A DNA stretch of 64,000 nucleotides from a bacterium UBP2_UBA2255 (GTDB lineage: Bacteria; Edwardsbacteria; AC1; EtOH8), in assembly GCA_002347565.1 (NCBI GenBank), contig DDXR01000038.1, forward strand, positions 9,909 through 73,908, read 5' to 3'. The number at the start of each line of letters is the position of its first letter. Position 1 is the stretch's first letter. The notes under the pieces were generated by a model that ran no database searches, was not told where the DNA came from, and was given only the letters and a program-made list of their open reading frames with translations. Of this stretch, positions 1,976 through 55,401 are shown piece by piece. The translations under genes were made by a program, and so were the position numbers.

Positions 1976-2887
1976 TCAGCCCCACAGCCGAGCCGGGTAC
2001 GCGCCCGCCGCCACCAGCCGGGCGATGGCCGCGGCCACCGCCGCCCTGTCCTGTTGGTAGGTGACGCCGAACCAGCGGTCGTCAGTGGGCAGCACCGCCA
2101 CCGCGGCCTTGTCCTCGCGCACCAGCCCGTCGACCACGCCGGGAAGGTAGTATTCGGGCTTGAGCGGGTCGGGCATCGTCCGCAGGAACTCGGGAAACCG
2201 CCGCTCCAACTCGTGCATGAACCCGGGGGTGAAGCCCCACAGGTTCATCGATACCGGCGTTCCGCGGGGGATGGCATGCCAGGACTCGCCGTCCTCGGTG
2301 TAGCGGGCCTCGCCGTCGAAGGACTGGATCCTGGTGCGCTCGGTGATGCCCGCCAGGTTGCCGTCCGCGTCGACCGTGCAGACACCGCGGGCCACGTGGC
2401 CGTGCTCGGTCAGGGTGTTCTCCACCGGGTAGCCCACCATGGCGTAGCGGCATTTCGCGTCGTCGCGCGCGTCGCGCAGGAAGCCCGCGATCGCCTGGAA
2501 CGACCGCCGGCCGTAGAAGTCGTCGCCGTTGATCACCGCGAACGGGCCGTCGACGTCATGTCGTGCCGCCAAGGCGGCATGGCCCGTGCCCCACGGCCTG
2601 GTCCGGCCGGCCGGGACCGCGAACCCGGCGGGCAGGTCGGCCAGCTCCTGGAAGGCGTAGCGCACCTCGACCGCCCGCTCCGCCTTGGCGCCGACCCGCT
2701 CCCGGAAGACGGATTCGATCTGGCGGGTGATCACGAACACCACCCGGCCGAACCCCGCGCGCACCGCGTCGTACAGCGAGTACTCGATCAGGATCTCGCC
2801 GGCCGGCCCCACCGGGTCGACCTGCTTGAGGCCCCCGTAGCGGCTGCCGATGCCGGCCGCCATCACCACCAGGGCCGGGGCGCTCAC
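1976..2887 (-). CDS. sugar-phosphate nucleotidyltransferase (NTP_transferase family)
   Basis: N-terminal MAAGIGSRYGG is the G-x-G-t-R nucleotide-binding loop. GTG start overlaps the panD stop (GTGA). Confidence 0.6.
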   Translation of the reverse strand: MSAPALVVMAAGIGSRYGGLKQVDPVGPAGEILIEYSLYDAVRAGFGRVVFVITRQIESVFRERVGAKAERAVEVRYAFQELADLPAGFAVPAGRTRPWGTGHAALAARHDVDGPFAVINGDDFYGRRSFQAIAGFLRDARDDAKCRYAMVGYPVENTLTEHGHVARGVCTVDADGNLAGITERTRIQSFDGEARYTEDGESWHAIPRGTPVSMNLWGFTPGFMHELERRFPEFLRTMPDPLKPEYYLPGVVDGLVREDKAAVAVLPTDDRWFGVTYQQDRAAVAAAIARLVAAGAYPARLWG

Positions 2888-3246
2888 AGCTTGGTCTTCT
2901 TGCTGATGCGGTTGCGCTCGTCCACGCAGACGATCCTGGGTTTGTGCCGCTTCGCCTGGGCGGTGGACAGCCAGCAGGACGAGATGATGATCACCTTGTC
3001 GCCCGGCATCCCCAGCCGCGCCGCCGCGCCGTTGAGGGTGATCACGCCCGACCCGGCCCGGCCCCGGATGGCGTAGGTCTCGAAGCGGTTCCCGTTGTTG
3101 ACGTTCACCACCTGCACGATCTCGTTGGGGAAGATGTCGGCCGCGGCCAGCAGCTTCTCGTCGACCGAGATCGAGCCCTCGTAGTGCAGGTTGACGTCGG
3201 TCAGCGTGGCCCGGTGGATCTTGGACTTGCAGAGGATTCTAAGCAT
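2884..3246 (-). CDS. panD: aspartate 1-decarboxylase
   Basis: MLRILCKSKIHRATLTDVNLHYEGSISVD...FETYAIRGRAGSGVITLNGAAARL closely matches PanD, including the YEGS pyruvoyl-forming serine. Confidence 0.93.
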   Translation of the reverse strand: MLRILCKSKIHRATLTDVNLHYEGSISVDEKLLAAADIFPNEIVQVVNVNNGNRFETYAIRGRAGSGVITLNGAAARLGMPGDKVIIISSCWLSTAQAKRHKPRIVCVDERNRISKKTKL

Positions 3247-3827
3247 TATCTGTTCCTACTAGCGATTACTACTTTCCAGTTCTTTATAAAATCATCTTCT
3301 ACCGAGTCGTTACTATAATGCCGAAGAATCATCATTGCGATAAAATATATAACTGCAAAAGAATAATGAATGTTCCATCCAACCAGATAGATCAAAGACA
3401 GTTTATAACAGCATAGTAAAACTAAAGGGTATATTGAAATTATTATCCCTAAAATCAGAAACAGCGCGGTCTGAGAATATGTGTACATTTTGATCGTGAA
3501 TTTACTTCTGTAGTTTCTCCAATCAATCTCCCAATTCGATTTTCTTGCAGCAATGAGGTACGAACTAAGTATACGTAAGTTAATCTTCATATTACAACTT
3601 AACCAATATATCATGCCGAGAAGTATGTATAAAAAAGTCGTGACAAAGAAAACATAGTTGTGTATTGATTGGTTTTCATTTATCAAAGCCTTCGGCGTTA
3701 CCCATGCTAGGACCACGCAGACAGCACTAATAGCAGCTGTAGATAATGCTACTCTCTGATTTACTAATTGAAGTATTTCCCCATGTACTTTCGCTATATC
3801 ACCAGCTTGTTTTGGATCTGTTGGCAT
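3246..3827 (-). CDS. hypothetical low-GC polytopic membrane protein (about 4 TM), embedded in the pan operon
   Basis: 582-nt ORF of ~30% GC in a ~68% GC genome, using AT-rich codons (AGA, ATA, TTA) and encoding several hydrophobic helices. It starts 8 nt after the panC stop and its stop overlaps the panD ATG by 1 nt (TAATG). I recognise no family. Confidence 0.55.
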   Translation of the reverse strand: MPTDPKQAGDIAKVHGEILQLVNQRVALSTAAISAVCVVLAWVTPKALINENQSIHNYVFFVTTFLYILLGMIYWLSCNMKINLRILSSYLIAARKSNWEIDWRNYRSKFTIKMYTYSQTALFLILGIIISIYPLVLLCCYKLSLIYLVGWNIHYSFAVIYFIAMMILRHYSNDSVEDDFIKNWKVVIASRNR

Positions 3828-3835
3828 TGAAACAC

Positions 3836-4678
3836 CTAAATAATAATATTGTCTATCAACCGTGCGCTGGAGAACCTCACCGCCAGCGCGACTAGTGTAT
3901 CGCCCGTGATCTTCTTGACAGGTTCGAGCGTCCGGTTGTCCACGATCCCGATGTAGTCGACCTCGCCCAGAGGCGCCTCGCGTGCGAGCATTTTCGTCAT
4001 TTCACGTTTCACCATTCCCGCTTCACGCCGGCCCGACCGCGCCAGCCATTTCGCCAGGTTGAGCGCATGATAGAGCGCCGGGGCCTGGGCCCGCTCGGCC
4101 GGCGTCAAGTAGGCGTTGCGCGAGCTCATCGCCAGGCCGTCCTTCTCCCGCACGATCGGGCCGACCACGAACTTCACCGGGAAGTCCAGGTCCCGCGCCA
4201 TCTGCCTGATCACCGCGGCCTGCTGGGCGTCCTTCTGGCCGAACACGGCGACGTCCGGACGCACCATGTTGAACAATTTCGAGACGACGGTGGCCACGCC
4301 CCGGAAATGCCCGGGCCGCGATGCGCCGCACAGCCCATCGGTCAGTCGTTCGACCGTGACGTACGTGCGGTAATCGTCGGGATAGACGTCCTGGACCCGG
4401 GGCGCGAAAATGAGGTCCGCGCCGGCGGTGCTGCACAGCGCCGCATCGCGCTGCAGCTCGCGCGGGTATTTCTTGAGATCCTCCTTGGGCCCGAACTGGG
4501 CCGGGTTGACGAAGATCGAGACCACGACGAACTCCGACGTGCGCTTCGCCAGCCGGATCAGCGAGAGGTGCCCCTGGTGCAGCGCGCCCATGGTCGGCAC
4601 CAAGCCGATGCCGCGGCCCTTTATTCGCTGCGCGGCGACCAGTTGTCGGAGCCGGGGGATCGTCTTAACGATCTTCAT
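3836..4678 (-). CDS. panC: pantoate--beta-alanine ligase
   Basis: LVPTMGALHQGHLSLIRLAK (HxGH), FVNPAQFGP, GHFRGVATVVSKLFN and VFGQKDAQQ are PanC signatures. Confidence 0.93.
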   Translation of the reverse strand: MKIVKTIPRLRQLVAAQRIKGRGIGLVPTMGALHQGHLSLIRLAKRTSEFVVVSIFVNPAQFGPKEDLKKYPRELQRDAALCSTAGADLIFAPRVQDVYPDDYRTYVTVERLTDGLCGASRPGHFRGVATVVSKLFNMVRPDVAVFGQKDAQQAAVIRQMARDLDFPVKFVVGPIVREKDGLAMSSRNAYLTPAERAQAPALYHALNLAKWLARSGRREAGMVKREMTKMLAREAPLGEVDYIGIVDNRTLEPVKKITGDTLVALAVRFSSARLIDNIII

Positions 4679-4756
4679 TTTCTTCACACAAAGACACTGA
4701 GACACAAAGGAAAACCCGTGATGGTCTTGGCGTCTTCGCGTCTTGGCGTTCGGTGG

Positions 4757-5569
4757 TTATTCCTCGTCGGAGAAGCTCTCGGCCATCGACGGGAACGCGC
4801 CCTGGCGCACATCGTCGATGTACGACGTGTAGGCACCGCGCATGGCCTTGGCGATGTCGGCGTACTTGCGCACGAACTTGGGCGTGAAGTCCTCGAACCG
4901 GCCGTCCATGTCGTCCACCACCAGGATCTGCCCGTCGCAGTGCGGCCCGGCGCCGATGCCGATGGTGGGGATGGCCAGCGCCTCTGTCACCTTTTTCGCG
5001 ACCTGGTGCGGGATCTTCTCCAGCACGATGGCGAAGCAGCCCGCCGCCTCCAGCGCCTTGGCCGCGGTCAGCAGGCGCTCGGCCGACTCCTTGTCGCGGG
5101 CCTGCAGCTTGTATCCGCCGAACTTGTGCACCGACTGCGGGGTCAGGCCCAGGTGGCCCATCACCGGGATGCCGCGCTCCACCAGGTTCTTGACGATCGG
5201 CGCCGCCACCCGGCCGCCCTCCAGCTTGACCGCCTCGGCCCCGGACTCCTTGAGGAATTTTCCGGCGTTGAGCGCGGCGTCGGCGATCGAGGTCTGGTAC
5301 GACAGGAACGGCATGTCGGCCACCACCAGCGCCCGCTTGACGCCCCGCTTGACGGCCGCGGTGTGGTAGAGCATGGCCTCCATGGTGATCGGCAGGGTGT
5401 TCTCGTAGCCGGCGAACACCATCGCCGCCGAGTCGCCCACCAGGATCATGTCGATGCCGCACTGGTCCAGCATCCGGGCGGTGAGGTAGTCGTACGCGGT
5501 CAGGGAGGCGATCTTCCGCCCCTGTTGCTTCATCCTGATCAGCGTGCTGGTGGTGACCTTGTCGCTCAT
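4757..5569 (-). CDS. panB: 3-methyl-2-oxobutanoate hydroxymethyltransferase
   Basis: KIASLTAYDYLTARMLDQCGIDMILVGDSAAMV...GIPVMGHLGLTPQS...AGCFAIVLEKIP matches PanB; start taken at MSDKV. Confidence 0.93.
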   Translation of the reverse strand: MSDKVTTSTLIRMKQQGRKIASLTAYDYLTARMLDQCGIDMILVGDSAAMVFAGYENTLPITMEAMLYHTAAVKRGVKRALVVADMPFLSYQTSIADAALNAGKFLKESGAEAVKLEGGRVAAPIVKNLVERGIPVMGHLGLTPQSVHKFGGYKLQARDKESAERLLTAAKALEAAGCFAIVLEKIPHQVAKKVTEALAIPTIGIGAGPHCDGQILVVDDMDGRFEDFTPKFVRKYADIAKAMRGAYTSYIDDVRQGAFPSMAESFSDEE

Positions 5570-5729
5570 GGTCTGATCCGATCTTCTTTCGGACAAATGC
5601 ACGGCTGCACATCAGCGCGGGACGATGTTTACTGACGCCCCGCCATTCATAACCGATAAAGGATACACTAAAAACCGCGAAAAATCAAGCGAAAACGGGG
5701 AGTCCAAGTCCCGACGGATGAAGTGTTTA

Positions 5730-5758
5730 TTGACATTCCGACCGACATTGTGTATCAT
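5730..5758 (+). promoter_or_regulatory. sigma70-like promoter for trxB: TTGACA, 17-nt spacer, TATCAT
   Basis: ttgaca (5730-5735), ttccgaccgacattgtg, tatcat (5753-5758), about 30 nt upstream of the trxB ATG at 5790. Confidence 0.5.
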
Positions 5759-5789
5759 ACGATTCACATCAACACCCGAAAAGGCGATA

Positions 5790-6803
5790 ATGGAACTCAC
5801 CTCCCTCAACCTCTCGCTGGACGCGCTGCGGCAGACGGACTTCCCGGCCGTCGCGCCCGGCGGCGCGTACGACCTGGCCATCGTCGGCGGCGGGCCGGCC
5901 GGCCTGACCGCGGGCATCTACGCGGCCCGCAAGCGGGTCCCCGCGATCATGGTGACGCACGACCTGGGCGGCCAGGTGCTGTGGACATCGTCGGTGGAGA
6001 ACTACCCGGGCTACAACCTGGTGCAGGGCCGCGACCTGGTGGAGAAGTTCAAGGCCCAGGTGGCGCAGTTCCCCATCGCGGTGGCCCAGGGCCAGCGGGT
6101 GGCGCGGATCGAACCGCAGAACGGCCGCTTTCGGATCGTCACGGAATCAGGCGTGGAGCACTTCTCCCAAGCGGTATTGCTGGCGACGGGCAAGCGCTAC
6201 CGCAGCCTGGGCGTGCCCGGGGAGAAGGAACTGATCGGCCGCGGCGTGGCCTACTGCGCCACCTGCGACGCGCCGCTGTTCCAGGACAAAACCGCCGCCG
6301 TGGTCGGCGGCGGCAACTCGGCGCTGACTTCGGCGGGCGACCTCTTGAAGTACGCGGCCAAGGTCTACGTCATCAGCAACATGGCGGCGCTGAGCGGCGA
6401 CGCGGTGCTGCAGGAGCCGCTACGGAAATCCGGCAAGGTCGAGTTCCTGATGAGCACCACGGTGCTGGAGATCCACGGCACGGACAAGGTCGAGTCGATC
6501 ACCGTTTCGAACGGCGCGAACGACGGACAACGAACAATAGCCGTATCGGGCGTGTTCGTGGAGATCGGGCTGATCCCGAACAGCGAGCCGTTCCGGGACC
6601 TGGTCGACCTCAACCAGCGCGGGGAGATCGTCGTCGACTGCGCCTGTCGCACCTCGCGTCCCGGCGTGTTCGCGGCCGGGGACGTCACCACCGTGCCGGC
6701 CAAGCAGATCGTGGTGGCGGCCGGCGAGGGCGCCAAGGCCGCGCTGACGGCGTTCGACTGGCTGGCGCGGGGCGGGCCGCCGCAGGCCGCGGGCGAGCCG
6801 TGA
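5790..6803 (+). CDS. trxB: thioredoxin-disulfide reductase-like flavoprotein
   Basis: GGGPAG FAD motif, CATCDAPLF redox-active CxxC, second NAD(P)-binding GGGNSA and C-terminal GDVT. Start moved to MELTS at 5790 behind the predicted promoter. Confidence 0.85.
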   Translation: MELTSLNLSLDALRQTDFPAVAPGGAYDLAIVGGGPAGLTAGIYAARKRVPAIMVTHDLGGQVLWTSSVENYPGYNLVQGRDLVEKFKAQVAQFPIAVAQGQRVARIEPQNGRFRIVTESGVEHFSQAVLLATGKRYRSLGVPGEKELIGRGVAYCATCDAPLFQDKTAAVVGGGNSALTSAGDLLKYAAKVYVISNMAALSGDAVLQEPLRKSGKVEFLMSTTVLEIHGTDKVESITVSNGANDGQRTIAVSGVFVEIGLIPNSEPFRDLVDLNQRGEIVVDCACRTSRPGVFAAGDVTTVPAKQIVVAAGEGAKAALTAFDWLARGGPPQAAGEP

Positions 6804-15556: not shown

Positions 15557-17677
15557 TTAAGCGTTTTCTTGGCGGACGGCCGGGGTCGGCCAGCCGGCGA
15601 TCCGAGACCGCAGCAGCACCGCCAGGGCGTCGATGGCGCAGCGCTCCTGGGCCATGGTGTCGCGGTCGCGCACGGTCGCCGTGCCGTCCTGCAGGGTCTG
15701 GAAATCGACCGTGACGCAGAACGGCGTGCCGATCTCGTCCTGCCGCCGGTAGAGCTTGCCAATGCCGGCGGTGTCGTCGTACACGGCGCGGAAATCCGCC
15801 TGCAGCCGCTTCTTGACGCGCTGGGCCGTCTCGACGATGGCCGGCTCGTTCTTCTTGAGCGGCAGCACCGCCACGGTCACCGGGGCCAGCACCGGGTGCA
15901 GCCGCAGCACCACCCGGGTGTGCTCGTCGCACAGCCTGGCGCACGCCGCCCTGGCCTTCTTGACCAGGTCGAGCCGGTCGGCGCCGGGCAGGCCGCAGGC
16001 GCCGTCGACCTGCAGCAGCGAGTCCGGCAGCCCGGCCACGGCGGCGGCCAGCGCCGACTCGATGGTCCGCAGCTGCCCCGGCGTCGGGACGGCTTCGGCC
16101 GGCCGCTTCTCCGCCTCGGCGATCCGCTTGGCGATGTTCTTGAGGGCCGCCGCGGCGGCCTCGCGCAGCGGCGCCAGGGCCGCTTCCGCCGGCGCCGAGA
16201 GCTGCTCCTCCCCGTAGGCCTCGCACAGAAAAGCCAGCGTGGCCCGGGTGGCGCCGGCCGACGGCTCGATCACGAACGGGACGTACTTGGCGCCCTTCTT
16301 GCCGGTCTGCGGATCGGCGTAGGACTCGTCGAAGTACTCCAGCTTCTCCGTGGAGTGCCCGTTCCTGGCCAGCTTCAGCCGCGCCAGGGCGTCATCTGGC
16401 ACGTCCCGGCTGTGGGCCGTCAGGTCGTAGTCCTGGCGGTTGGCCACGCCCTCGATCTCGCTCCAGCCCAGGCTGCCCGGGAACAGGTACTCGATGTCCA
16501 CCGTGCGCTTGGCGTAGTGGGCCAGCTCCTTCGGCTCCTGCTCCCGCTGCCGCAGCCTGGCCGGGTCGATCCCCAGGCCGACGTACCAGCGGAACCGCGC
16601 CTGCAGCCACTCCTCGTGGAGCTGCTCGTCGTTCTTCTCGCCATCCTTCAGGAACCGCGGCGGCTTGCAGAAGTACTCGATCTCCATCTGCTCGAACTCG
16701 CGGGTGCGGAAGGTGAAGTTGCCGGGCGTGATCTCGTTGCGGAAGGCCTTGCCCACCTGGGCCACGCCGAACGGCAGCTTGCGCCGCGAGGACTGCAGGA
16801 TGTTGAGGAAATTGACGAAGATGCCCTGGGCGGTTTCGGGCCGCAGGTAGGTGAGGCCGGACTCGTCCTCCACCGGCCCGACATGGGTCCGGAACATGCC
16901 GTTGAACATCCGGGGCGCGGTCAGCTCGCCCCCGCACTCCGGGCATGTTTTTTCTAGGTATAACTCTAATTGTTCTACTTGATATGCTTTGACTTCGATG
17001 TTGAATTTCTTACCCCCTACAACCAAACATAAAGTCCCTCGACTATACAATGGCATTGATAGATGGTTAAAAGCAAAAAATATTGGGCCAGATGACGACT
17101 CTAGCTCCATGCCTACTGCTGGATCATAATAAGGGAATTCACCCGGTCTAGCTTTCCGTGTGATTGGAATCACAACATCGTTGTTAATGCAAAGTTTAAC
17201 GTCTTCGATCCTAACAACAGAGCCGGTTGCATTTGTTATGTCGATAAGACCTACTTTTAAGTACTTGTCATTGTTCTCATCAACGATTCGCACTACTCTT
17301 GATATCGCCTTGACACATATACCCTCACTACTGAATTCTCTGACAGAGTTGTAGGTAACTTGATCAGCACGATACCGCTTCTTACAATTTTTACAATCTT
17401 GAAGCGGGTCGGTGAAGGTGGCCTCGTGGCCGGAGTACTGCCAGACCAAACGGTTCATCAGGATGGCCGAGTCCAGGCCGTCCATGTCATCGCGGTCGTA
17501 GACCACGGCCTGCCACCAGGCGCGGATGACGTTGTTCTTCAGCTCCACGCCCAGCGGGCCGTAGTCCCAGGTGGAGCCCACGCCGCCGTAGATCTCGGAG
17601 GACTGGAACACGAAACCGCGCCGCTTGCAGAGCGAGACCAGTTTGTCGAAGGTGTTGTCGGGCTTATAGGGCTGCAT
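15557..17677 (-). CDS. glyQS: glycine--tRNA ligase (alpha2 type) carrying a ~150-aa low-GC in-frame insertion
   Basis: N-terminus MQPYKPDNTFDKLVSLCKRRGFVFQSSEIYGG, FRNEITPGNFTFRTREFEQMEIEYF and the C-terminal anticodon-binding domain match GlyRS. Residues ~93-246 are encoded by AT-rich DNA. Confidence 0.88.
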   Translation of the reverse strand: MQPYKPDNTFDKLVSLCKRRGFVFQSSEIYGGVGSTWDYGPLGVELKNNVIRAWWQAVVYDRDDMDGLDSAILMNRLVWQYSGHEATFTDPLQDCKNCKKRYRADQVTYNSVREFSSEGICVKAISRVVRIVDENNDKYLKVGLIDITNATGSVVRIEDVKLCINNDVVIPITRKARPGEFPYYDPAVGMELESSSGPIFFAFNHLSMPLYSRGTLCLVVGGKKFNIEVKAYQVEQLELYLEKTCPECGGELTAPRMFNGMFRTHVGPVEDESGLTYLRPETAQGIFVNFLNILQSSRRKLPFGVAQVGKAFRNEITPGNFTFRTREFEQMEIEYFCKPPRFLKDGEKNDEQLHEEWLQARFRWYVGLGIDPARLRQREQEPKELAHYAKRTVDIEYLFPGSLGWSEIEGVANRQDYDLTAHSRDVPDDALARLKLARNGHSTEKLEYFDESYADPQTGKKGAKYVPFVIEPSAGATRATLAFLCEAYGEEQLSAPAEAALAPLREAAAAALKNIAKRIAEAEKRPAEAVPTPGQLRTIESALAAAVAGLPDSLLQVDGACGLPGADRLDLVKKARAACARLCDEHTRVVLRLHPVLAPVTVAVLPLKKNEPAIVETAQRVKKRLQADFRAVYDDTAGIGKLYRRQDEIGTPFCVTVDFQTLQDGTATVRDRDTMAQERCAIDALAVLLRSRIAGWPTPAVRQENA
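16955..17395 (-). other. low-GC in-frame insertion inside the glyQS zinc ribbon (candidate intein-like or horizontally acquired insertion domain)
   Basis: ~440 nt of ~35% GC with AGA/ATA/TTA codons and no stop in frame. It separates the two CxxC knuckles (DCKNCKK ... CPECGG) by ~150 aa; without residues C121-T246 the knuckles would sit ~25 aa apart, as in typical GlyRS. Confidence 0.6.
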
Positions 17678-20692: not shown

Positions 20693-23600
20693 CTATCTCA
20701 CCCGGACCAGCTTCTGGGTGCGGGCCTGATCATCGAACTCCAGCCGGACGAAGTACAGGCCGGCCGCGGCCGCCATCCGGCCGTTGTCGGTCCCGTCCCA
20801 GCGCGCGGCATAGTACCCCGCCTCCTGGCGCCCCTCGGCCAGGGTCCGCACCAGCTGGCCGGCCACATTGTAGACCTTCAGGCCGACCCTTCCGGTGCGC
20901 GGCAGCTGATAGCTGATGACCGCGCTGCCGGCGCAGGGATTGGGCGAGACCCGTTCCAGGCCGAAGGCCAGCGGCCTGAGGTCCAGGCTGCCGATCGGCC
21001 GGTCGCTGCAGATCACCGCGAACTCGCGCGATCCAGTCAGGGTGACCGCGACCGGTCCGGAGATCTCGGTGGCCGTGCCCAGCTTGCGGTCGACCAGGTA
21101 CGCGCGCTGGCCGGCGGCCAGGGCGCCGCTGGGCTCGAGCCGGATGGTCGCCCGGGCCTCGGGATCGGACTGCCGCACGACCAGCGGCCACTCCAGGTGC
21201 GCGGCCGGCGGCCGGAAATCGTAGTGGTAGGCCGCGCAGGGCCCCTGACCCCACTCGGGGTGCGGGATCTCGGCCGAGACGGCGTCCGACACCAGCGGCG
21301 GCTTCTCGGCATCCAGCCGGTCGTAGCCTGCGGCGGCCTGGGGAGAGACGCCCATCACCAGCCCGCGGTCCGCTCCGGCGTTGGACTCGACGTCGATCCG
21401 CACCTGCCACAGCTGATCAGCCGCTGGCGGCGATCCCACCCCCGGCTGCGCCTTGGCCGCCAAGAAACGCAGGTAGCAGCTTCCCACCGCGTATACCGCG
21501 TAGCCGCCCCAGGGCTGGATCTGCGAGCTCTCGTTGAACGGCGTCAGCGTGTCCCAAACGCCGTTGTTGTAGAGGTCGGGGCTGTTGTCGGTGTACGTCC
21601 ACACCCGCTGGCGCAGCATGGTGTTGTTGACGGCGCCGCTGTTGTCGTCGAACCGGTACGACGGTCCGGTGTCGCGGCTGACCTCGAGCCCGCCCAGCTG
21701 CAGCGCCGACAGGTAGGGATCCCCGAACAGGTTCCAGCCTGGCTCCATGGCCAGCACCGTCTGGGGATTGGTGTTCGGGGTGCAGCTGACGCTGAGCGTG
21801 GCGGTGTCGACCGTCGCCAGCCAGTAGCCGCGGCCGTTATGGACGGCCGGACGCTCGACATACCGGGCCTGCTGGGCACTGTAGCCGAACATCCGCCAGC
21901 TGGCGCTGCCGTATGAGCCCAGCGAAGGTCCGAGCGCCCCCACCGCGGTCGACTCGGCCGGGATGGCCGGGATCGACATCAGCTGGTAGCGGCGTCCCGG
22001 CCAAAGGGTCGTGACCGCCTGCGGGCTGGCCGTCGTGAATATGGCACCGGCGACCCCCGCCAGCGGGTTCCCGGAACTGTCGCGGGCGCCGGTGACGGTG
22101 AACGAGTACTCGGTCGCCGGGGCGAACCGGGCGTGGGACAGCGTCAGGTAGGTGCCGGCCGCGTTCCAGCTGCGGGACCATCCGGACACCGCCGGGCTGC
22201 AGACGAAGGTGACGCTGGTGTCCGTCACGCCCTTGGAGAACCCGATCACCACGTCCTGCGTCAGTCCGACGCCGGTGTCGCCGTTGGCGGGCGAGAGGGA
22301 TACGACCGCGGGTGCGCCGCTGTCGAAGGGCGCCCATATCGCAAATGAATCGCGGCCCAGCGTGAAGTCGAAGGAGTCCGCGAAGGCGCCGGCGTGGCCG
22401 AGCACGATCGCTCCGCCGTCGGCGGCGGCGCCGGGGTTGCGCTGCGCGACGGCCGGGCCGGACCAGCCCGGCAGGGCTCCGCGCCGGTAGCGGCCGGCGG
22501 CCATGGCCGCCTCGTGCGCCGCTTCGGTGAAGCCGGGAGGGTTGAAGTCGGCCGGGGTATAGGACAACCGGAGATCGAACCCGCCCAGCGCGATGCCGGT
22601 GGAGGCGAACGTCCAATGCTTGCGCAGGCAGGCCGCGGCGTTGGACACCATGGGATGGGGCTGGCCGCTGACGCCGGCGCTGACGTAGCCCGGTGCGCTG
22701 GGGCTGAATGGCTGCAGCTGGACCGGCGAGTAGCCGGCGGCCACGGTGCCAAGGTCGTAGGCCACCAGGGTGTCGCTGGTCCGGATGTACCGCCGCAGGG
22801 TGCCGTCGATATATCCGCCGGCCCGGGTGACAGAACCCGTACTGTCGACGGTCAGCGTGCGGCCGCCGGTGACCAACGCGCCCTGGGCCAGGGACAGGTT
22901 CCCGGCGACCGTCCGGTCGGCGTGCAGCGTCAGCGGCCCGCCGGTGCTGACCGAGACGTTGCGGGGCCCGTCGCTGACCGGGAACTCGCCTTCGCCGGTG
23001 ATGCCGGCGCCGGCCAGCTCATAGACCAGGCTGGCCGCCGGCCGGTACTGCAGCCAGTTGCTGTTGACCGCCCCGCTCCGCCGGACGCAGGCGCCCCTGA
23101 TCGGCAGCGGGGCGCCCAGGTTGACGCCGGCAGTGCGATCCAGCACCAGGGTGTCGAGGCCGGAGACCGTTGCCGGGATCAGGATGGGCGCGGGATCGTT
23201 GCCGGCCACGGCCAGCCGCGATGTGCTGTCCGCCAGCAGGTCGCCGCCGAAGTAGCCGATCTGCCCCAGCAGCGCCAGGCGGCGGGCGCCGACCCGCAGG
23301 GCTCCGGCGTTCAGCTTCAGCGTATCCCGCACCGCAAGGTTCCGCGTCAGGATGACGTTGTCACCGGAGCTCTCGACCACCAGCTGTCGCACCGTGTCCG
23401 GGAAGCCGGGGCCGGTCGGATACGGGCCGGTCGACAGCGAATAGAAGAAGTAGTCGGCGTCCTGGCTGTACTGCCGGGCGCCTCCGACCCGCACCGGTCC
23501 CAGGTCCTGGCCGGGCGGATGCAGTCCCTCGACGTCGGTCATCCCCAGCGCGGCGCCAGGCAGCAGCTGGAACCAGCCCAGGCTGTTCTGCCCGACGTTG

Positions 23601-25642
23601 CTCCATTGCTCGATCACCAGGAAGGCGCCGGGATCGACCCGGTAGTTGACGTGGCCGGTCAACATCTCGCCGCTGGCGGAGTAGCGCTGCATGGCGGCAC
23701 CGCAGAAGACGATGGTGGTCGAGTCCGGCCCGCCGCCGGCGATTCCGGCCACAAGGTGATAGTAATCGCCCCGCAGGAAGAGCGTGGAGATGCCGGGGCT
23801 GGACGTGTCCGTCAGGTGGAGCCAGGCGGGATCGTAGACGGTGAAGCTTCCGTTGACCGTGACCGAGCGCATCCCGCCGCCGCCCAGGACGACTTCGTTG
23901 CCGCTCCCCTGGAGCAGGAGATCGCCGTTGATGGTCAGATCCGGCACCGCCGGGCTGGTCAGGAACAGCCGGCTTCCCCCCGTCGACATCACCTCGAGCC
24001 CGCGCAGGGCGAATGCCGGCCCGCCGGGTAGAACGATGTCGCCGGACTGGTCGGGGCAGTACCAGCGGATTTCGCCGAAGGACTGGTTCATCCCCGCGGG
24101 AGCCAGGTTCTGGACATCCGCAATGTAGAGCGTGGAGAAGGGGCTCCAGTCTGCCGTCGGGATCGCGCCGCCGTTGACGGCATGGGTGTACTGGCTGTAG
24201 GCGTCGAACACCAGCGTCGCGCCCGGCGACTGGGTGAAGCTCCCGCCGGAGAACTGGTAGACGCCGCTGACGAACAGATCGTCTCCCAGGCCGTCGGCGA
24301 TCGTCAGGTCGGATCCCAGCTGCGCCAGCGTGCCCTCGACGCGCAGCTGGTCGATCGTGATGGCCGGGCCGCCGATGTCAAGGATGATGGCATGGCCGGC
24401 CTGGATGGTGACGATGCTGTCGCCGACGCCCGATGGGCAGAGGCTGTCCGGGTTGCCCCAGGTCAGGCCGCCGTTGTCCGAGTACTCCCACGAGGAGGGC
24501 GCCAGCCACTGCCCGCTCGCCGTCGCGCTGCGCCAAATGCGGCCTGGCACCTTGCCGATCACCGGCACCCAATCCAGGCCGCTGGCCGCCACGTAGACGT
24601 CGCCGCCGTTGTCCACCTTCAGGTCCACCGGGCGGGCATAGGCGGCACCCAGGTAAACGCTGGCCGCCAGCAGCGGGCTGGCGCCCCGGGGGTCGACGAT
24701 CCGGACATAGCCGTTGTTGCAGTCGGCGCAGTAGATCAGCGAGTCGGACGGGTTGTAGACGATGGCGGCGATCGAGTCGCCCACGGCCACCGAGTCGGCG
24801 TTCCCCAGCTCGTCGATGGCGTACAACGAGCGGCTGCTGGCCCCGTTGCAGGCGACGAACATCTTGTTATTGAGCGGGCACAGCGCGAACCCGGCCGGGT
24901 TATCACCGACGATGGGGCTGGCCAGCAGCATGTTGCTGGCGGTGTTGATGATCGCCACGCGGTCGACCAGGGAGAGGGCCGCGTACAGGCGGCTGATTGC
25001 CGGGTTCGCCCCCATCCGCTTGTTGCCGGAGGCCAGGCCCGAGATCTCGAGGGCCGCGACCTTGGCGTTGGTCGCGCCGCTGAACACGCCCAGCGAGTCG
25101 CCGCTGTACCAGGGGATGTAGACGCTGTTGGTCGGCTGGTAGTACAGCATCGGGCCGGCGAAGCCGTTGATGGCGGCGTTGTAGGTGTAGCCCGCGGAGT
25201 TGTAGACGTGGGTCTGCCCCGAGAAGTCGTCGAACAGGTAGATCTTGCCGTTGTCCGGGTTGTACTCCACCGCCAGCCCGCCCTGGAACCCGCCCACGGT
25301 CGTGTCCTCGGTGTTGGCAGCGCAGTCGATGGCGCACAGCTCGTCATTGCCTTTCATGTAAAGCAGATTGGCGGCAGCGTTGTACACCATCGGGCCGGTC
25401 ATGAACGAACCAGGCAGCTGCCCCAGCGACGAATCGTTGGCGCAATTCACCGCCAGCACCATGTTGTAAGCGTTGGCGGCGCAGTACATCCGGTTGCTGG
25501 CCGGGCTGAAGCCGAGATTCAGCAGCTGCGGTCCGGTGGCGCCCACGATGATCTGCTTCTTGACGCCATAACTGGCTGCCGACAACAACGTGGCGGGAAT
25601 GAGCAAACAAACCGCCATGATGCCGATCGTCCGATTTCTCAT
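20693..25642 (-). CDS. giant (1649 aa) T9SS-secreted surface protein: N-terminal YVTN/NHL-type beta-propeller repeats, beta-helix-like region, Ig-like (SbsA/Big_5-like) domain, C-terminal Por sorting domain
   Basis: Signal peptide MAVCLLIPATLLSAASYG. Repeated NP-x-x-x-LY/VYV propeller blades (YNPSDSLIYCADCNNGYVRIVD and similar). Ig-like VVSLSPANGDTGV...VTFVCSPA. T9SS CTD GLKVYNVAGQLVRTL...GLYFVRLEFDDQARTQKLVRVR. Confidence 0.7.
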   Translation of the reverse strand: MRNRTIGIMAVCLLIPATLLSAASYGVKKQIIVGATGPQLLNLGFSPASNRMYCAANAYNMVLAVNCANDSSLGQLPGSFMTGPMVYNAAANLLYMKGNDELCAIDCAANTEDTTVGGFQGGLAVEYNPDNGKIYLFDDFSGQTHVYNSAGYTYNAAINGFAGPMLYYQPTNSVYIPWYSGDSLGVFSGATNAKVAALEISGLASGNKRMGANPAISRLYAALSLVDRVAIINTASNMLLASPIVGDNPAGFALCPLNNKMFVACNGASSRSLYAIDELGNADSVAVGDSIAAIVYNPSDSLIYCADCNNGYVRIVDPRGASPLLAASVYLGAAYARPVDLKVDNGGDVYVAASGLDWVPVIGKVPGRIWRSATASGQWLAPSSWEYSDNGGLTWGNPDSLCPSGVGDSIVTIQAGHAIILDIGGPAITIDQLRVEGTLAQLGSDLTIADGLGDDLFVSGVYQFSGGSFTQSPGATLVFDAYSQYTHAVNGGAIPTADWSPFSTLYIADVQNLAPAGMNQSFGEIRWYCPDQSGDIVLPGGPAFALRGLEVMSTGGSRLFLTSPAVPDLTINGDLLLQGSGNEVVLGGGGMRSVTVNGSFTVYDPAWLHLTDTSSPGISTLFLRGDYYHLVAGIAGGGPDSTTIVFCGAAMQRYSASGEMLTGHVNYRVDPGAFLVIEQWSNVGQNSLGWFQLLPGAALGMTDVEGLHPPGQDLGPVRVGGARQYSQDADYFFYSLSTGPYPTGPGFPDTVRQLVVESSGDNVILTRNLAVRDTLKLNAGALRVGARRLALLGQIGYFGGDLLADSTSRLAVAGNDPAPILIPATVSGLDTLVLDRTAGVNLGAPLPIRGACVRRSGAVNSNWLQYRPAASLVYELAGAGITGEGEFPVSDGPRNVSVSTGGPLTLHADRTVAGNLSLAQGALVTGGRTLTVDSTGSVTRAGGYIDGTLRRYIRTSDTLVAYDLGTVAAGYSPVQLQPFSPSAPGYVSAGVSGQPHPMVSNAAACLRKHWTFASTGIALGGFDLRLSYTPADFNPPGFTEAAHEAAMAAGRYRRGALPGWSGPAVAQRNPGAAADGGAIVLGHAGAFADSFDFTLGRDSFAIWAPFDSGAPAVVSLSPANGDTGVGLTQDVVIGFSKGVTDTSVTFVCSPAVSGWSRSWNAAGTYLTLSHARFAPATEYSFTVTGARDSSGNPLAGVAGAIFTTASPQAVTTLWPGRRYQLMSIPAIPAESTAVGALGPSLGSYGSASWRMFGYSAQQARYVERPAVHNGRGYWLATVDTATLSVSCTPNTNPQTVLAMEPGWNLFGDPYLSALQLGGLEVSRDTGPSYRFDDNSGAVNNTMLRQRVWTYTDNSPDLYNNGVWDTLTPFNESSQIQPWGGYAVYAVGSCYLRFLAAKAQPGVGSPPAADQLWQVRIDVESNAGADRGLVMGVSPQAAAGYDRLDAEKPPLVSDAVSAEIPHPEWGQGPCAAYHYDFRPPAAHLEWPLVVRQSDPEARATIRLEPSGALAAGQRAYLVDRKLGTATEISGPVAVTLTGSREFAVICSDRPIGSLDLRPLAFGLERVSPNPCAGSAVISYQLPRTGRVGLKVYNVAGQLVRTLAEGRQEAGYYAARWDGTDNGRMAAAAGLYFVRLEFDDQARTQKLVRVR

Positions 25643-25824
25643 GGTTGCTCCCTTTCTAGGAGATGTGTATAACGACTAAATCTTGCAATAGCCATGCCAA
25701 ACACACCGATATCTATAATTCATTATTTATCAAATGGTTGACTAATGATATCTTTATGGAAACAACCAATGACATTATGATTTTTCATATCTATTACTGT
25801 CTAGCATTGCTGTTTTTTATATCA

Positions 25825-26250
25825 TCAGTCTGTCTCCACTTCAATATCGATCTCATCGATTTCCAAAGGATTATTCGGCAATGGAACAGTGATGGCGTCT
25901 TGCATATCGAACAACCGGGAAGCTTGTTGTTTTTTCCTCGCTCGCCTGGTGATTGGCATGGCCCCCGCGCTGGCGGCTTCGTTCTCCGGGGCCCGCTTCC
26001 CGCTGGCGGTCCTCTGCCGGAGCAGCGCCGCGGGGTTCAGCGAGATGCCGCTCTGCGACAGGCGCTGGTCCAGGCCGGTGGCGAAATTGCCGCCCTCGTC
26101 CAGCGCGGCCATCAGCTCGGCCAACGCCTCGTCTGACAGATTCAGCCCCAGCGTTCCGACGGTGCCCTCCAGGTCGGATTCCAGCCGGCGGCGGAACTCG
26201 TCGTCCGCGAGCGCGCGGTCGAGGATCAGCTGGACGTCTTTATCCGTCAT
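25825..26250 (-). CDS. Nif11/NHLP-like leader-domain protein (leader ends in GG) with an 85-aa Cys-free acidic C-terminal region
   Basis: MTDKDVQLILDRALADDEFRRRLESDLEGTVGTLGLNLSDEALAELMAALDEGG resembles Nif11/nitrile-hydratase-leader-peptide type RiPP leaders, including the terminal GG. GGAGGAG RBS 7 nt upstream. Assignment by pattern only. Confidence 0.35.
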   Translation of the reverse strand: MTDKDVQLILDRALADDEFRRRLESDLEGTVGTLGLNLSDEALAELMAALDEGGNFATGLDQRLSQSGISLNPAALLRQRTASGKRAPENEAASAGAMPITRRARKKQQASRLFDMQDAITVPLPNNPLEIDEIDIEVETD

Positions 26251-48887: not shown

Positions 48888-49421
48888 TCAGATCCTTCGC
48901 CCGATTTTCTTCGCTGGCACACCACCAACAATAACATAGGGTTCTACATCCCTTGTCACAACGGCACCAGCACCGACAACTGCGCCATCCCCAATATTCA
49001 CGCCAGCAAGAATGATCACACCTGCGCCGATCCAAACATCATTCCCTATCTTGACGGGCTTATTGATCAGGGGCTGCTGCAAGATCATTTTTGTGCTTCT
49101 CTTGATGCCATGCTCATTCGTAAAAACCATCAACCCTGGGCCGATCATCACGTCGTGGCCTATTTCTATTTTTTCATCGGCGTTCAAGATCGCATTCAAA
49201 CCGATGCTTGAGTTATCGCCGATAAAAATGTTCCAGTAGTAGTTCAATTGGGCGCCTGGCTGTATGTTCACATTTCTCCCCATCTTCCCGACAAAATAGC
49301 GCAGAAAAGCGACCCGAGCTCTGGAACCAAAAGATTTGGCATCACGGGGTGCCGGTAAATCCTTCAGGAAAAGTGCGTAGAATAGCATGATCGCCTTTTC
49401 CAGATTATACTTGAGGCTCAT
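48888..49421 (-). CDS. hexapeptide-repeat sugar O-acetyltransferase (LbH family; WbbJ/MAT-like)
   Basis: IGDNSSIG...[10 protein letters not shown]...[31 protein letters not shown] hexapeptide repeats; ~47% GC, lower than the flanks. Confidence 0.8.
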
Positions 49422-50590
49422 TTCGCAACGTACCTTTCGATGATGTCGCATAGTTCCTCCACTCTCGCACCCCAGCTCCAACCAGACACCTGCCCGGTAA
49501 TGCGGGCCTGTATTGCTGCCCGATCGACCGGTGTCAGACATGCGTCGATGTACCGCGAAAAGACGGCTCGATCCTGCGATACCATAACATGTTCCTTCAA
49601 TGAATCATCCACTGGTACTGTTGAAACCACCATTTTCCCGGAAGCTTTATATTCAAGCAGTTTCAGTGGAAATCTGGAGCGCACAAATTCCTTATATCGG
49701 CCATCACATATCCATGGTATCAAACAGACAGCGAACGGCTTCAAGTAGGCTGGCAATGAGGTCCATGGCTTTGCCCCAAGGTAATGCATGTTTGTATTGC
49801 CATCAATCAGAAGCTTCAAACGCTCTCGACAGTCGTCCGTAACCGGTCCGATAAACACAAAACTCCTCCCCGCGTTTTGCGAGACTACGTATTCTAGTAA
49901 ATTGTAATCCAAGCCGGCATCGATCATGCCAACATAACCGATAATGGGGGGTGATATTCGCGAGATATCCTCTGGCACAGATAGCGGTTGTTGATTCTGC
50001 AAGTAAAAATGTTCGTCAACACCATGCTTAAACAACACGGCATTGGTGTTCATCGATTTGCATTTATCAAACAATGCCTCGGTAATAGCCAATGGTACGG
50101 TTACATTCGTGATCATTGCCTTTTCCCTGTTCTCCATCACTGAACGGAATTGACCGGAGTAGATTTCGGGGAAATTATCCGAGCAATGATAGACCGTGCA
50201 GGCAGCATCGGGGAAGGCGTCCAGCAAAAACGTATTCCAGGGGTTGCCCAGGAACAGTATCAGCTTGCTCGGGTCATACCGGCCCAGGGCGTGTTTGATC
50301 TGTGCGACAAAATACTTCGGATCGGCCGTGTTCATGACGAAATCGAACTTGTTCTTCCACGGCAGTTCCGAGGGCGACAGCACGGTCAGGCTTTCGTTCC
50401 CGGGCCGCCAGGCGCGCCCGGCCAGCGCCGCCAGCCCGTATTCCCCGACCTGCGCGTCAAGCGGCCGCGGGGGGTCGACAAAAATGACCCGGTTCTTTTT
50501 GGCCAGCCGGGACATGATGTGGTGCTTGCTGTAGCGGTTGCGGTTCCAGGGGATATTGGAGTCGCAAACTATGGTGTATCCCTCGATCAT
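49418..50590 (-). CDS. glycosyltransferase-like protein (GT1-related fold, weakly supported)
   Basis: 390-aa soluble protein in the glycan locus whose stop overlaps the acetyltransferase ATG; lower GC. Fold assignment is tentative. Confidence 0.4.
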
Positions 50591-54252: not shown

Positions 54253-55401
54253 TCAAATGCTCTCCTGAATGACCGATTCATAAACCCGCTGCATTGACTT
54301 GGCGGCCTTTTCCCAGGCATATTGCATCGATCGCGCCTTGCCCATCTCTATCAATTCATCCCGTTTGTGCTGATTGTGTAACACTGTATTAACTGCACTT
54401 CGCAGTGCGCTAGGGTCCTTGGGCGGGAAGAAGACAGCCGCATCACCCGCAACTTCCCTATGGCAGCTTGTTTCGCTCGCAACAACTGGGCATTCGCACC
54501 GGAATGCTTCAGCGATGGGGAGAGAGAAACCTTCGTACAACGAAGGCACGATCAATAACTCAGCATTGGTGTAGAGATCTGCAAGCATGTGGTCGTTTGC
54601 AGCAACCTGAATGACATTCTCGGCGATTCCAAGCCCGGAAAAATAGGATCGTTCTATCCCTGAAAAAGGATTTTCGTTCGCGCATACCAATAGATACGGC
54701 TTGCTGCCGGACAGGAGCGGTCGTATCGCTTGGCATAGGAAATGAAAATTCTTGTATCCCGATCTTCTTCCGACATACAAGAAATACTTGCGTGGATATT
54801 GAGAACCTGTCGGCGCATTTCCTCTCCGACTCTGCAAGGATACCCCATGGTGTATCACGGTTATCTTTTGATGGGGGACACACAGAAAATCTATAATTTG
54901 CTTTTTAGTATTCTCCGAAACGGCAACAATATGGTTGGCCCTGTTGATTAAATCCCGTTTATAGAACAATAACGGGTCTTGGAGTGAATATTCAGGGTAC
55001 GTTTCTTGGAACATATCATGAACCGTGAGGACGAAAGGCTTCCTTCCGATCGCTGGCAGGAAGTAGGGGTCGTGGTAGGTTGGATGGAAGAGGTCATAGC
55101 GGTGCCGGTTGTTTGCCAACCACCGGTTAGCAAGTCGGCGGTTTTCGGCAAGCCGATCACTCACATATCTCGGTCCGCCAAACACAGCACGGATCCTGTT
55201 CCTGAAAGATGGATAGGGAATCTCCATCTGCAACCGTCCCAGTGCGCCATCGTCAGCCGCATATTGGTTCTGTCCGTAATAACGGGGAATCTGGATATCC
55301 ACGCCCAGCAATCGCATATGGCTGATGATCTCGAAAAAATAGCGACTTATCCCGCCATACCGTTGCATGCCGAAAATCTGGCCGTCGTATGCGACCTTCA
55401 T
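54253..55401 (-). CDS. glycosyltransferase family 1 (GT4)
   Basis: LIVPSLYEGFSLPIAEAFRCECPVVAS; ~45% GC. Confidence 0.8.
   Translation of the reverse strand: MKVAYDGQIFGMQRYGGISRYFFEIISHMRLLGVDIQIPRYYGQNQYAADDGALGRLQMEIPYPSFRNRIRAVFGGPRYVSDRLAENRRLANRWLANNRHRYDLFHPTYHDPYFLPAIGRKPFVLTVHDMFQETYPEYSLQDPLLFYKRDLINRANHIVAVSENTKKQIIDFLCVPHQKITVIHHGVSLQSRRGNAPTGSQYPRKYFLYVGRRSGYKNFHFLCQAIRPLLSGSKPYLLVCANENPFSGIERSYFSGLGIAENVIQVAANDHMLADLYTNAELLIVPSLYEGFSLPIAEAFRCECPVVASETSCHREVAGDAAVFFPPKDPSALRSAVNTVLHNQHKRDELIEMGKARSMQYAWEKAAKSMQRVYESVIQESI

Follow-up and report, generated by a model that had tools for sequence, protein, structure and literature searches.

The stretch analyzed here, hereafter the window, comprises 64,000 nucleotides (65.8% GC) of a genome placed in the candidate phylum Edwardsbacteria (UBP2_UBA2255, assembly GCA_002347565.1, contig DDXR01000038.1, positions 9,909 to 73,908) and harbors on its minus strand the pantothenate operon panB-panC-panD, followed by a nucleoside triphosphate (NTP) transferase gene (Table 1). 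Between panC and panD lies an additional open reading frame (ORF) of 193 codons, here termed orfX. Its ATG stands 8 nucleotides past the TAG stop codon of panC, a Shine-Dalgarno-like AGGTG is located in the spacer 5 nucleotides ahead of that ATG, and the orfX stop codon TAA is merged with the panD start codon into TAATG, an overlap that would allow translational coupling of the two genes. The true start of panC is probably the ATG at 4678, since the PanC proteins of relatives are 280-281 amino acids long.

An earlier note on this DNA had pointed to an AT-rich membrane-protein gene precisely embedded between panC and panD, and the gene, the 8-nucleotide gap and the TAATG overlap that it described are all borne out by the sequence. 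Both the overall GC content of orfX and its GC content at third codon positions (GC3) are 0.35, whereas GC3 ranges from 0.84 to 0.97 in the individual neighboring genes and amounts to 0.92 when these are pooled. The embedding, however, is precise only in part, because the junctions are neat but the AT-rich tract exceeds the ORF. In comparison with the nearest relatives, which lack the insert (L089, L091 and L090), the last seven codons of panC are recoded in the window (TTG ATA GAC AAT ATT ATT ATT TAG, against CTG ATC GAC AAC GTC GTG ATC CGG TAG) and panD begins with ATG CTT AGA instead of ATG CTG CGG. Since this recoding reaches into both genes, the tract (approximately 3238-3859) appears to have brought short pieces of panC and panD along. 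With a GC content of 0.342, where the kilobases on either side have 0.70 and 0.65, it is the lowest-GC segment of its length (622 nucleotides) across the 64 kb.

As the earlier note had stated for insertion sequences and integrases, no transposase or integrase ORF occurs within 10 kb of orfX. No inverted repeat or target duplication above chance flanks the gene in the window, and orfX presents none of the defining features of an insertion sequence, a transposon or a miniature inverted-repeat transposable element (transposase, terminal inverted repeats and target-site duplication). An integron gene cassette was also considered and rejected, because the overlap of the orfX stop with the panD start leaves no space for an attC site and neither an inverted repeat nor an integrase is present. 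No promoter or terminator proper to orfX was recognized, the sigma-70-like matches inside the gene being at the level expected by chance for AT-rich DNA.

The view that orfX is an artefact, arising from a chimeric assembly or from a reading frame open by chance in non-coding, AT-rich DNA, can be set aside with near certainty. Four metagenome contigs from independent assemblies, of which two are held by JGI (source samples 3300000558 and 3300002220) and two by ENA (ERZ27315067 and ERZ27315072) and which represent at least three samples, code for the exact orfX protein, span panC-orfX-panD and are 99.7-100% identical to the window; both junctions are thus reproduced by four assemblies, excluding the chimera that the earlier note had raised as a concern. 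The same architecture recurs, moreover, in two further lineages. A frame of 193 codons was not attained in any of 5000 shuffles of the segment (maximum 163), none of the remaining five frames stays open for more than 56 codons, and no Rfam family matches the region. The shuffles and the missing Rfam match rule out a chance ORF or a non-coding RNA, and the 299 database matches described below also tell against an artefact. As a separate observation, the sole differences between the window and one of the contigs (L001, positions 773-783) are five mismatches within 11 nucleotides of panC (window 4164-4174), which alter three PanC residues and for which a micro-conversion and an assembly variant are both conceivable.

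Table 1. Features of the pan operon in the window and of related loci elsewhere. L numbers precede positions on other contigs and P numbers denote proteins; aa, amino acids; nt, nucleotides; TM, transmembrane.
Feature	Location	Strand	Basis
panB (ketopantoate hydroxymethyltransferase; first gene of the operon)	4757-5602	minus	Pfam PF02548, E=1.9e-117
panC (pantoate-beta-alanine ligase)	3836-4705	minus	Pfam PF02569, E=5.5e-108
panC stop codon TAG and 8-nt spacer GTGTTTCA	3828-3838	minus	sequence
orfX (193 aa, unnamed family; four TM helices, predicted N-in/C-in)	3246-3827	minus	ORF statistics, HMMER, alignment A1, AlphaFold2 model
TAATG, overlap of orfX stop and panD start	3244-3248	minus	sequence
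panD (aspartate 1-decarboxylase)	2884-3246	minus	Pfam PF02261, E=5.6e-48
NTP-transferase gene, overlapping the panD stop	1976-2887	minus	Pfam PF00483
AT-rich tract (last 7 panC codons recoded, 8-nt spacer, orfX, panD codons 2-3 recoded)	3238-3859	minus	comparison with the insert-less L089, L090 and L091
GxxExxY gene in the panC-panD slot	L155 4882-5277 (also L156-L159)		TIGR04256
Second GxxExxY gene, in the panB-panC spacer	L154 984-1364		TIGR04256
orfX-HAD module	L086 5668-6938; L088 188-1458; L098 6001-7337; L107 1278-2888; P0024		

The orfX protein family

Curated family collections do not cover orfX. The best Pfam-A match, to DUF5676, scores 14.3 bits where the cut-off lies at 27.6, no match was obtained with NCBIfam or PADLOC, and PHROGs gave no E-value below 0.035; in addition, 88 family members compared with Pfam yielded only scattered sub-threshold matches to transmembrane (TM) families. 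A word-indexed search of 5.8 billion proteins returned orfX alone, and the family came to light because an exhaustive HMMER (phmmer) search was run against 1.84 billion cluster representatives, which provided 299 matches at E<=1e-3 and 120 at E<=1e-10. The relatives are mostly 185-205 amino acids long, and one of them (P0057, 433 amino acids) is a tandem duplication of the orfX module. In an alignment of 88 sequences (A1), K13 and S97 are invariant and D10, H15, E17, Q20, Q24, R25, L70, Y90, L91, W99, E100, L126 and W184 nearly so. Every one of these residues is retained by orfX, which also presents the remaining hallmarks of the family: a length of about 190 amino acids, four TM helices, an N-terminal D-x2-K-x-H-x-E-x2-Q-x3-QR motif (D10-K13-H15-E17-Q20-Q24-R25, in the N-terminal helix), an S-x-W-E loop (S97-x-W99-E100) and a C-terminal Trp (W184).

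An AlphaFold2 model based on the A1 alignment (pLDDT 94, pTM 0.87) consists of helices 5-43, 57-93, 98-109, 114-141, 148-171 and 175-191, within which four long hydrophobic helices (26-43, 57-78, 114-141 and 148-171) agree with the approximately four TM segments anticipated by the earlier note. The distribution of Lys and Arg fits an N-in/C-in topology, with the N-terminus, the TM2-TM3 loop and the C-terminus predicted to be cytoplasmic, and the conserved residues would therefore gather on the cytoplasmic side of what would be a small inner-membrane protein, in a polar cluster to which the N-terminal helix, the TM2-TM3 loop and the C-terminal helix contribute. The TM sequences, in contrast to these polar cytoplasmic residues, are poorly conserved in the alignment. 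The gene is thus real and maintained by selection, and it represents a new, undescribed family. No solved structure related to orfX was found, and no homologues were detected in phage, plasmid or IMG/VR collections or in BFVD. A holin or another phage membrane protein was rejected as a candidate, given the lack of matches in phage genomes, IMG/VR and BFVD and the absence of a lysis-gene context.

Variation at the panC-panD junction in Edwardsbacteria

The annotations of the best PanC relatives place them in Candidatus Edwardsbacteria or TA06. In the three nearest lineages, the PanC proteins of which are 88% (L089), 84% (L091) and 83% (L090) identical to that of the window, the order panB-panC-panD-NTP-transferase is maintained with a panC-panD spacer of 66-101 nucleotides that carries an AAGGAG site and no orfX. 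The NTP-transferase gene follows panD in L090, L151 and L155, and synteny is kept in all relatives, whether or not they bear orfX. A scan of GTDB genomes for PanC, dominated by a peptide pattern of wide conservation (FGQKDAQQ), provided only distant matches (at most 57% identity) without orfX. In 80 such distant GTDB loci the panC-panD gap is usually 10-100 nucleotides, and the two long gaps inspected (L005 and L014) contain unrelated ORFs. Literature searches on Edwardsbacteria and on GxxExxY/PDDEXK_3 turned up nothing relevant.

More distant Edwardsbacteria do carry orfX at the same site. One of its two closest homologues (P0003, 216 amino acids; 42% identical in the HMMER search and 38% in global alignment) occupies the identical position on a 133-kb contig, L151, which reads asnS ... 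panB-panC-orfX-panD-NTP-transferase-LytR_C-RsfS-argS, and a further homologue (P0051, 221 amino acids) lies between panC and panD in L154. The slot alleles of the window, L151 and L154 are 38-51% identical in amino acids, and those of L151 and L154 have a GC content of 0.29-0.30 and a GC3 of 0.22-0.25, against a GC3 of 0.81-0.89 in their panB and panD genes. All three alleles are preceded by GGTG-N5-ATG and followed by a panD gene that starts with ATG-NNT-AGA and then ATCCTCTGCAA, where the insert-less relatives have CTG CGG. The overlap of orfX with panD extends over 8 nucleotides in L151 and L154 (ATGTATAG and ATGTTTAG, respectively), compared with TAATG in the window. The three lineages that bear orfX do not group together on a neighbor-joining PanC tree but take up three separate positions.

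The slot can also hold an unrelated gene. A sister lineage of L151 (L155-L159), present on 11 contigs that include two of the samples that yielded the window sequence, carries there a gene of the GxxExxY/PDDEXK_3 type coding for 131 amino acids, with a GC content of 0.36, and a second gene of this type is found in the panB-panC spacer of L154. These genes match TIGR04256 at 130-146 bits and have GC contents of 0.36-0.40. The copy in L155 is bracketed by a 15-nucleotide inverted repeat (TACGATTCAAACGGA), longer than in any shuffle, and its insertion point apparently lay within the ancestral spacer. Like orfX, the GxxExxY/PDDEXK_3 ORFs (TIGR04256, PF13366) are thus AT-rich and solitary occupants of the panC-panD slot; unlike orfX, they encode a soluble protein of unrelated nuclease fold, and their cassette keeps spacer remnants together with the inverted repeat.

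Evidence on how these contents came to vary is provided by the identity profiles of L151, L154 and L155, which share PanB proteins 96-97% identical and PanD proteins 93-98% identical, while their PanC proteins are only 81-85% identical and the orfX proteins of L151 and L154 only 51%. Sliding nucleotide identity is 0.89-0.98 across panB, panD and the downstream gene, but it falls to 0.4-0.6 from 130-280 nucleotides before the panC stop and through the cassette, recovering to 0.82-0.94 at the panD start, with the drop ending at panD codon 3. The panC tails within the low-identity segment are AT-rich and yet Edwardsbacteria-like in amino acids, as in KFP(S/N)ARLIDN. The panC-panD slot therefore presents the three features that characterize a variable slot exchanged by recombination, namely conserved flanks, alternative contents and an abrupt fall and recovery of identity, and its content has probably been exchanged in this manner. 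With respect to panC itself, its 3' part is AT-rich and highly divergent whichever cassette follows (L151 5800-5989, L154 2000-2251 and L155 4600-4843), its 5' end in L154 (1409-1500) is likewise AT-rich and divergent, and its whole-gene GC3 in this clade is 0.62-0.65, against 0.88 for panB and panD.

It seems reasonable to postulate that the panC-panD junction of Candidatus Edwardsbacteria acts as a cassette slot that may hold a plain spacer, a divergent orfX allele or a GxxExxY (PD-(D/E)XK-family) gene. What the slot holds, and with it a panC 3' end of variable length, would be swapped between lineages by homologous recombination anchored in conserved panC and in the strongly conserved 5' sequence of panD, and the phylum itself would supply the replacing alleles from a pool of divergent, AT-rich sequences. 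Such anchoring is proposed to explain why the AT-rich tract spills into panC and panD and stops at panD codon 3. Within the operon, orfX would be transcribed by read-through from the pan promoter and translated from its own GGTG site, in putative translational coupling with panD. We consider this overall account, of a functional four-TM gene of long-standing low GC content in a recombining cassette slot, to be rather likely. Several points weigh against it, however. Recombination is deduced from the identity profiles of only three close genomes and the window, the slot contexts sampled represent seven PanC lineages, expression of orfX and its translational coupling are read from the sequence, and a very fast evolution in place of an ancestral orfX, accompanied by precise losses, would be a conceivable, if less simple, alternative.

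Variable gene slots between core genes, with contents that are swapped through recombination in the flanks, are known from defense or integration hotspots and from O-antigen-type loci. The pan slot resembles them in its conserved flanks, its alternative or divergent AT-rich contents and the sharp drop of identity at its borders. It differs from them, on the other hand, in lying inside a three-gene biosynthetic operon, in hosting a single promoter-less gene with a stop/start overlap, in an exchange tract that takes in the coding 3' end of panC and in containing no known defense gene. Variable slots are usually sought between operons or beside tRNA genes, and a core biosynthetic operon can evidently host a hypervariable single-gene slot, the exchange tract of which cuts into the panC coding sequence. 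Phage morons, extra genes of deviant composition between conserved genes, offer a further parallel, since orfX is a lone gene of sharply different GC content between otherwise adjacent conserved genes and is absent from close relatives. Unlike morons, orfX does not lie in a prophage, has no apparent promoter or terminator of its own and appears to be translationally coupled to the downstream gene.

The low GC content of orfX had been ascribed in the earlier note to horizontal acquisition followed by domestication, with a hint of a low-GC donor shared with an AT-rich block in the glyQS gene of the window. Taken as a rival explanation, this would mean a single, fairly recent acquisition from a donor outside the lineage, the low GC content being not yet ameliorated and the glyQS block having the same origin. 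That orfX is inserted relative to the nearest relatives, which have spacers of 66-101 nucleotides and no orfX, stands, and so does the contrast between a GC3 of 0.35 and one of 0.92. The relative synonymous codon usage of orfX does resemble that of the glyQS block (r=0.60, both correlating with host genes at about -0.4), but any two AT-rich coding stretches would correlate in this way and a common donor is not established. A recent foreign donor does not explain the low GC content, because equally AT-rich alleles, 38-51% identical and with similar junctions, share the site in other Edwardsbacteria; the gene is thus found at comparable GC content in relatives, although in more distant ones (L151 and L154) and not in the closest. 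The PanC tails carried with the cassette are, furthermore, Edwardsbacteria-like in amino acids, and the nearest homologue outside the pan slot (P0002, in L150) is just 39% identical to orfX. The family is also AT-shifted in most of its hosts. A metagenome scan with a sub-alignment (A2) provided 58 further orfX-family loci, and in 34 of 37 non-redundant loci the GC content of the homologue is below that of its surroundings (median shift -0.07, largest -0.19, sign test p=1e-7). A recent import is hence not supported and we regard it as improbable; we conclude that the low GC content of orfX is a long-standing trait of its gene pool.

Three candidate causes of such a trait are possible: a segment that is hemizygous or highly divergent might be spared GC-biased gene conversion, rare codons might be selected because they throttle the expression of a membrane protein, or there might be continual turnover from an AT-rich accessory gene pool. 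A regional process is favored over selection on orfX alone, because the synonymous sites of the adjacent panC tail are also AT-rich. The locus provides a counter-example to the equation of low-GC patches with recent foreign DNA and a test case for AT-rich accessory genes in GC-rich genomes.

Genomic contexts and possible roles of orfX

Apart from one recurrent partner, no conserved gene neighborhood was found around orfX homologues, and in 42 homologous loci no flanking inverted or direct repeats exceed chance. Most neighbors are housekeeping genes (among them aroA, aroC, miaA, der, fusA, aconitase and ahpC), but some are of a mobile or conflict type (Mrr, an integrase, a type IIG restriction-modification system, a HepT/MNT pair, a terminase nuclease and a SLOG-cluster-4 protein). 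In particular, P0002 sits between two toxin-antitoxin pairs, Gp49/HTH and PIN/MazE. Restriction-modification, toxin-antitoxin or PDC-type neighbors occur at approximately 5-6 of 38 loci, a count made without a background control. The sole recurrent partner, present in a subgroup of the family, is a HAD-IA hydrolase (beta-phosphoglucomutase family), the gene of which directly follows the orfX homologue in three loci (L086, L088 and L098) and is fused to it in L107 and P0024. The paired genes overlap by about 25 nucleotides and co-diverge (41-54% identity for orfX and 42-60% for HAD), and orfX-HAD is thus a conserved two-gene module that appears in unrelated genomic contexts.

A relationship with the SLATT/DUF4231 domains, two-TM effectors of conflict systems that use nucleotide signaling, was also examined. 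As these are, orfX is a small helical membrane protein; one family member (P0123, 387 amino acids) carries a bona fide SLATT_4 domain (NF033632, 84.6 bits) as a C-terminal fusion, and another (L129, 6798-7958) has as its downstream neighbor a protein that matches SLOG cluster 4 at a borderline level. In contrast to the two TM helices of SLATT, orfX has four, and homology was rejected, with only sub-threshold Pfam matches (DUF4231 in 5 and SLATT_5 in 2 of 88 members) and an hhalign probability of 1.5% between the family profile and SLATT_4. The orfX family, in which a Ser and a Lys are invariant, the fold is confidently predicted and fusions to HAD phosphatases and SLATT occur, adds an uncharacterized group of membrane proteins that is contained in none of Pfam, NCBIfam, PADLOC and PHROGs.

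A role specific to pantothenate synthesis is unlikely, because the family is found in many unrelated contexts. The hypervariability of orfX, its presence/absence polymorphism, the nuclease-family gene that is the alternative occupant of the slot, the toxin-antitoxin and restriction-modification neighbors and the SLATT fusion make us lean, tentatively and at less than even chance, towards an accessory membrane protein of the conflict type, involved in phage defense, exclusion or addiction. This lean is countered by the lack of any PADLOC match for orfX, by the minority share of defense-like genes among its neighbors in that uncontrolled count, by the absence of homologues from phages, plasmids and viral contigs and by the HAD-IA partner itself, which, co-diverging and twice fused, would rather indicate a physiological or enzymatic function. 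Under the latter reading, orfX might anchor a HAD-IA sugar-phosphate phosphatase in the membrane or act as its partner, or might itself serve as a small enzyme or a transporter making use of the cluster with the invariant Ser97 and Lys13, and would reside in the pan operon for co-expression. Co-diverging orfX-HAD pairs at no fewer than four divergent loci, the two independent fusions, the polar and cytoplasmic nature of the conserved residues as opposed to the poorly conserved TM sequence, and the many housekeeping neighbors are all congruent with such a role. None of the three pan-slot loci adjoins a HAD gene, however, the slot of close relatives holds a GxxExxY gene or nothing, and hypervariable alleles between genomes with core genes 96-98% identical would be unusual for a housekeeping partner, which leaves a physiological role worth weighing but unlikely.

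A different reading takes orfX as a purely selfish hitchhiker of no benefit to its host, which is kept because it took the place of the spacer and ribosome-binding site of panD, so that its imprecise deletion would harm panD expression. The native spacer with its AAGGAG site is indeed gone, in each of the three lineages that bear orfX its stop is overlapped by the start of panD, and there are no mobility genes. Nevertheless, the conserved residues and the confident fold imply purifying selection on the protein and no mechanism of spread has been identified, and we deem pure hitchhiking decidedly improbable. Entrenchment and a conflict role might also be combined, in that members of the orfX family, along with the GxxExxY genes found in its slot, may be "operon-lodger" cassettes, devoid of promoters and mobility genes, which spread purely by homologous recombination in housekeeping flanks and become entrenched through the translational start of a downstream essential gene, with orfX as a new conflict membrane protein. 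We put this forward as a speculation that is rather doubtful as it stands. If it were true, the persistent 30% GC, in a genome with a GC3 of 92%, would mark a long-lived AT-rich accessory pool that escapes, for instance, GC-biased gene conversion.

Other compositional anomalies in the window

The glyQS gene (15557-17677, minus strand) contains an in-frame AT-rich block of approximately 156 codons (window 16928-17395, residues ~95-250), in which GC3 is 0.38, against 0.95 in the remainder of the gene. The block lies between the CxxC and CPxCGG zinc knuckles, where it replaces and enlarges a variable insertion that comprises about 50 residues in Thermus GlyRS (1ATI), and it matches no Pfam or NCBIfam family. 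A second insertion in the same gene, of about 90 amino acids (residues ~494-586), is Ala-rich and GC-rich.

Next to the pan operon, a thioredoxin-reductase/AhpF-like ORF (5625-6803, plus strand) is annotated with a 5' end that lies in a stretch of lower GC content (0.44-0.48; window 5611-5810). Of the sigma-70-like promoter matches in the region, the two best fall within this stretch (5730-5791), and the real start of the ORF is probably further downstream, near residue 80. Elsewhere in the window, ORFs resembling a hexapeptide-repeat acetyltransferase and glycosyltransferases, as annotated by eye (48888-50590 and 54253-55401, minus strand), have a GC3 of 0.55-0.62, compared with 0.86-0.87 in their neighbors, and probably form a glycan-synthesis locus with exchangeable genes of lower GC content. 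Finally, a very AT-rich segment (25643-25960, with GC content down to 0.29) lies upstream of a gene coding for a secreted protein of 1649 amino acids (20693-25642, minus strand) and looks like a promoter region, although this does not account for its extension into the AT-rich C-terminal coding tail of the ORF at 25825-26250.

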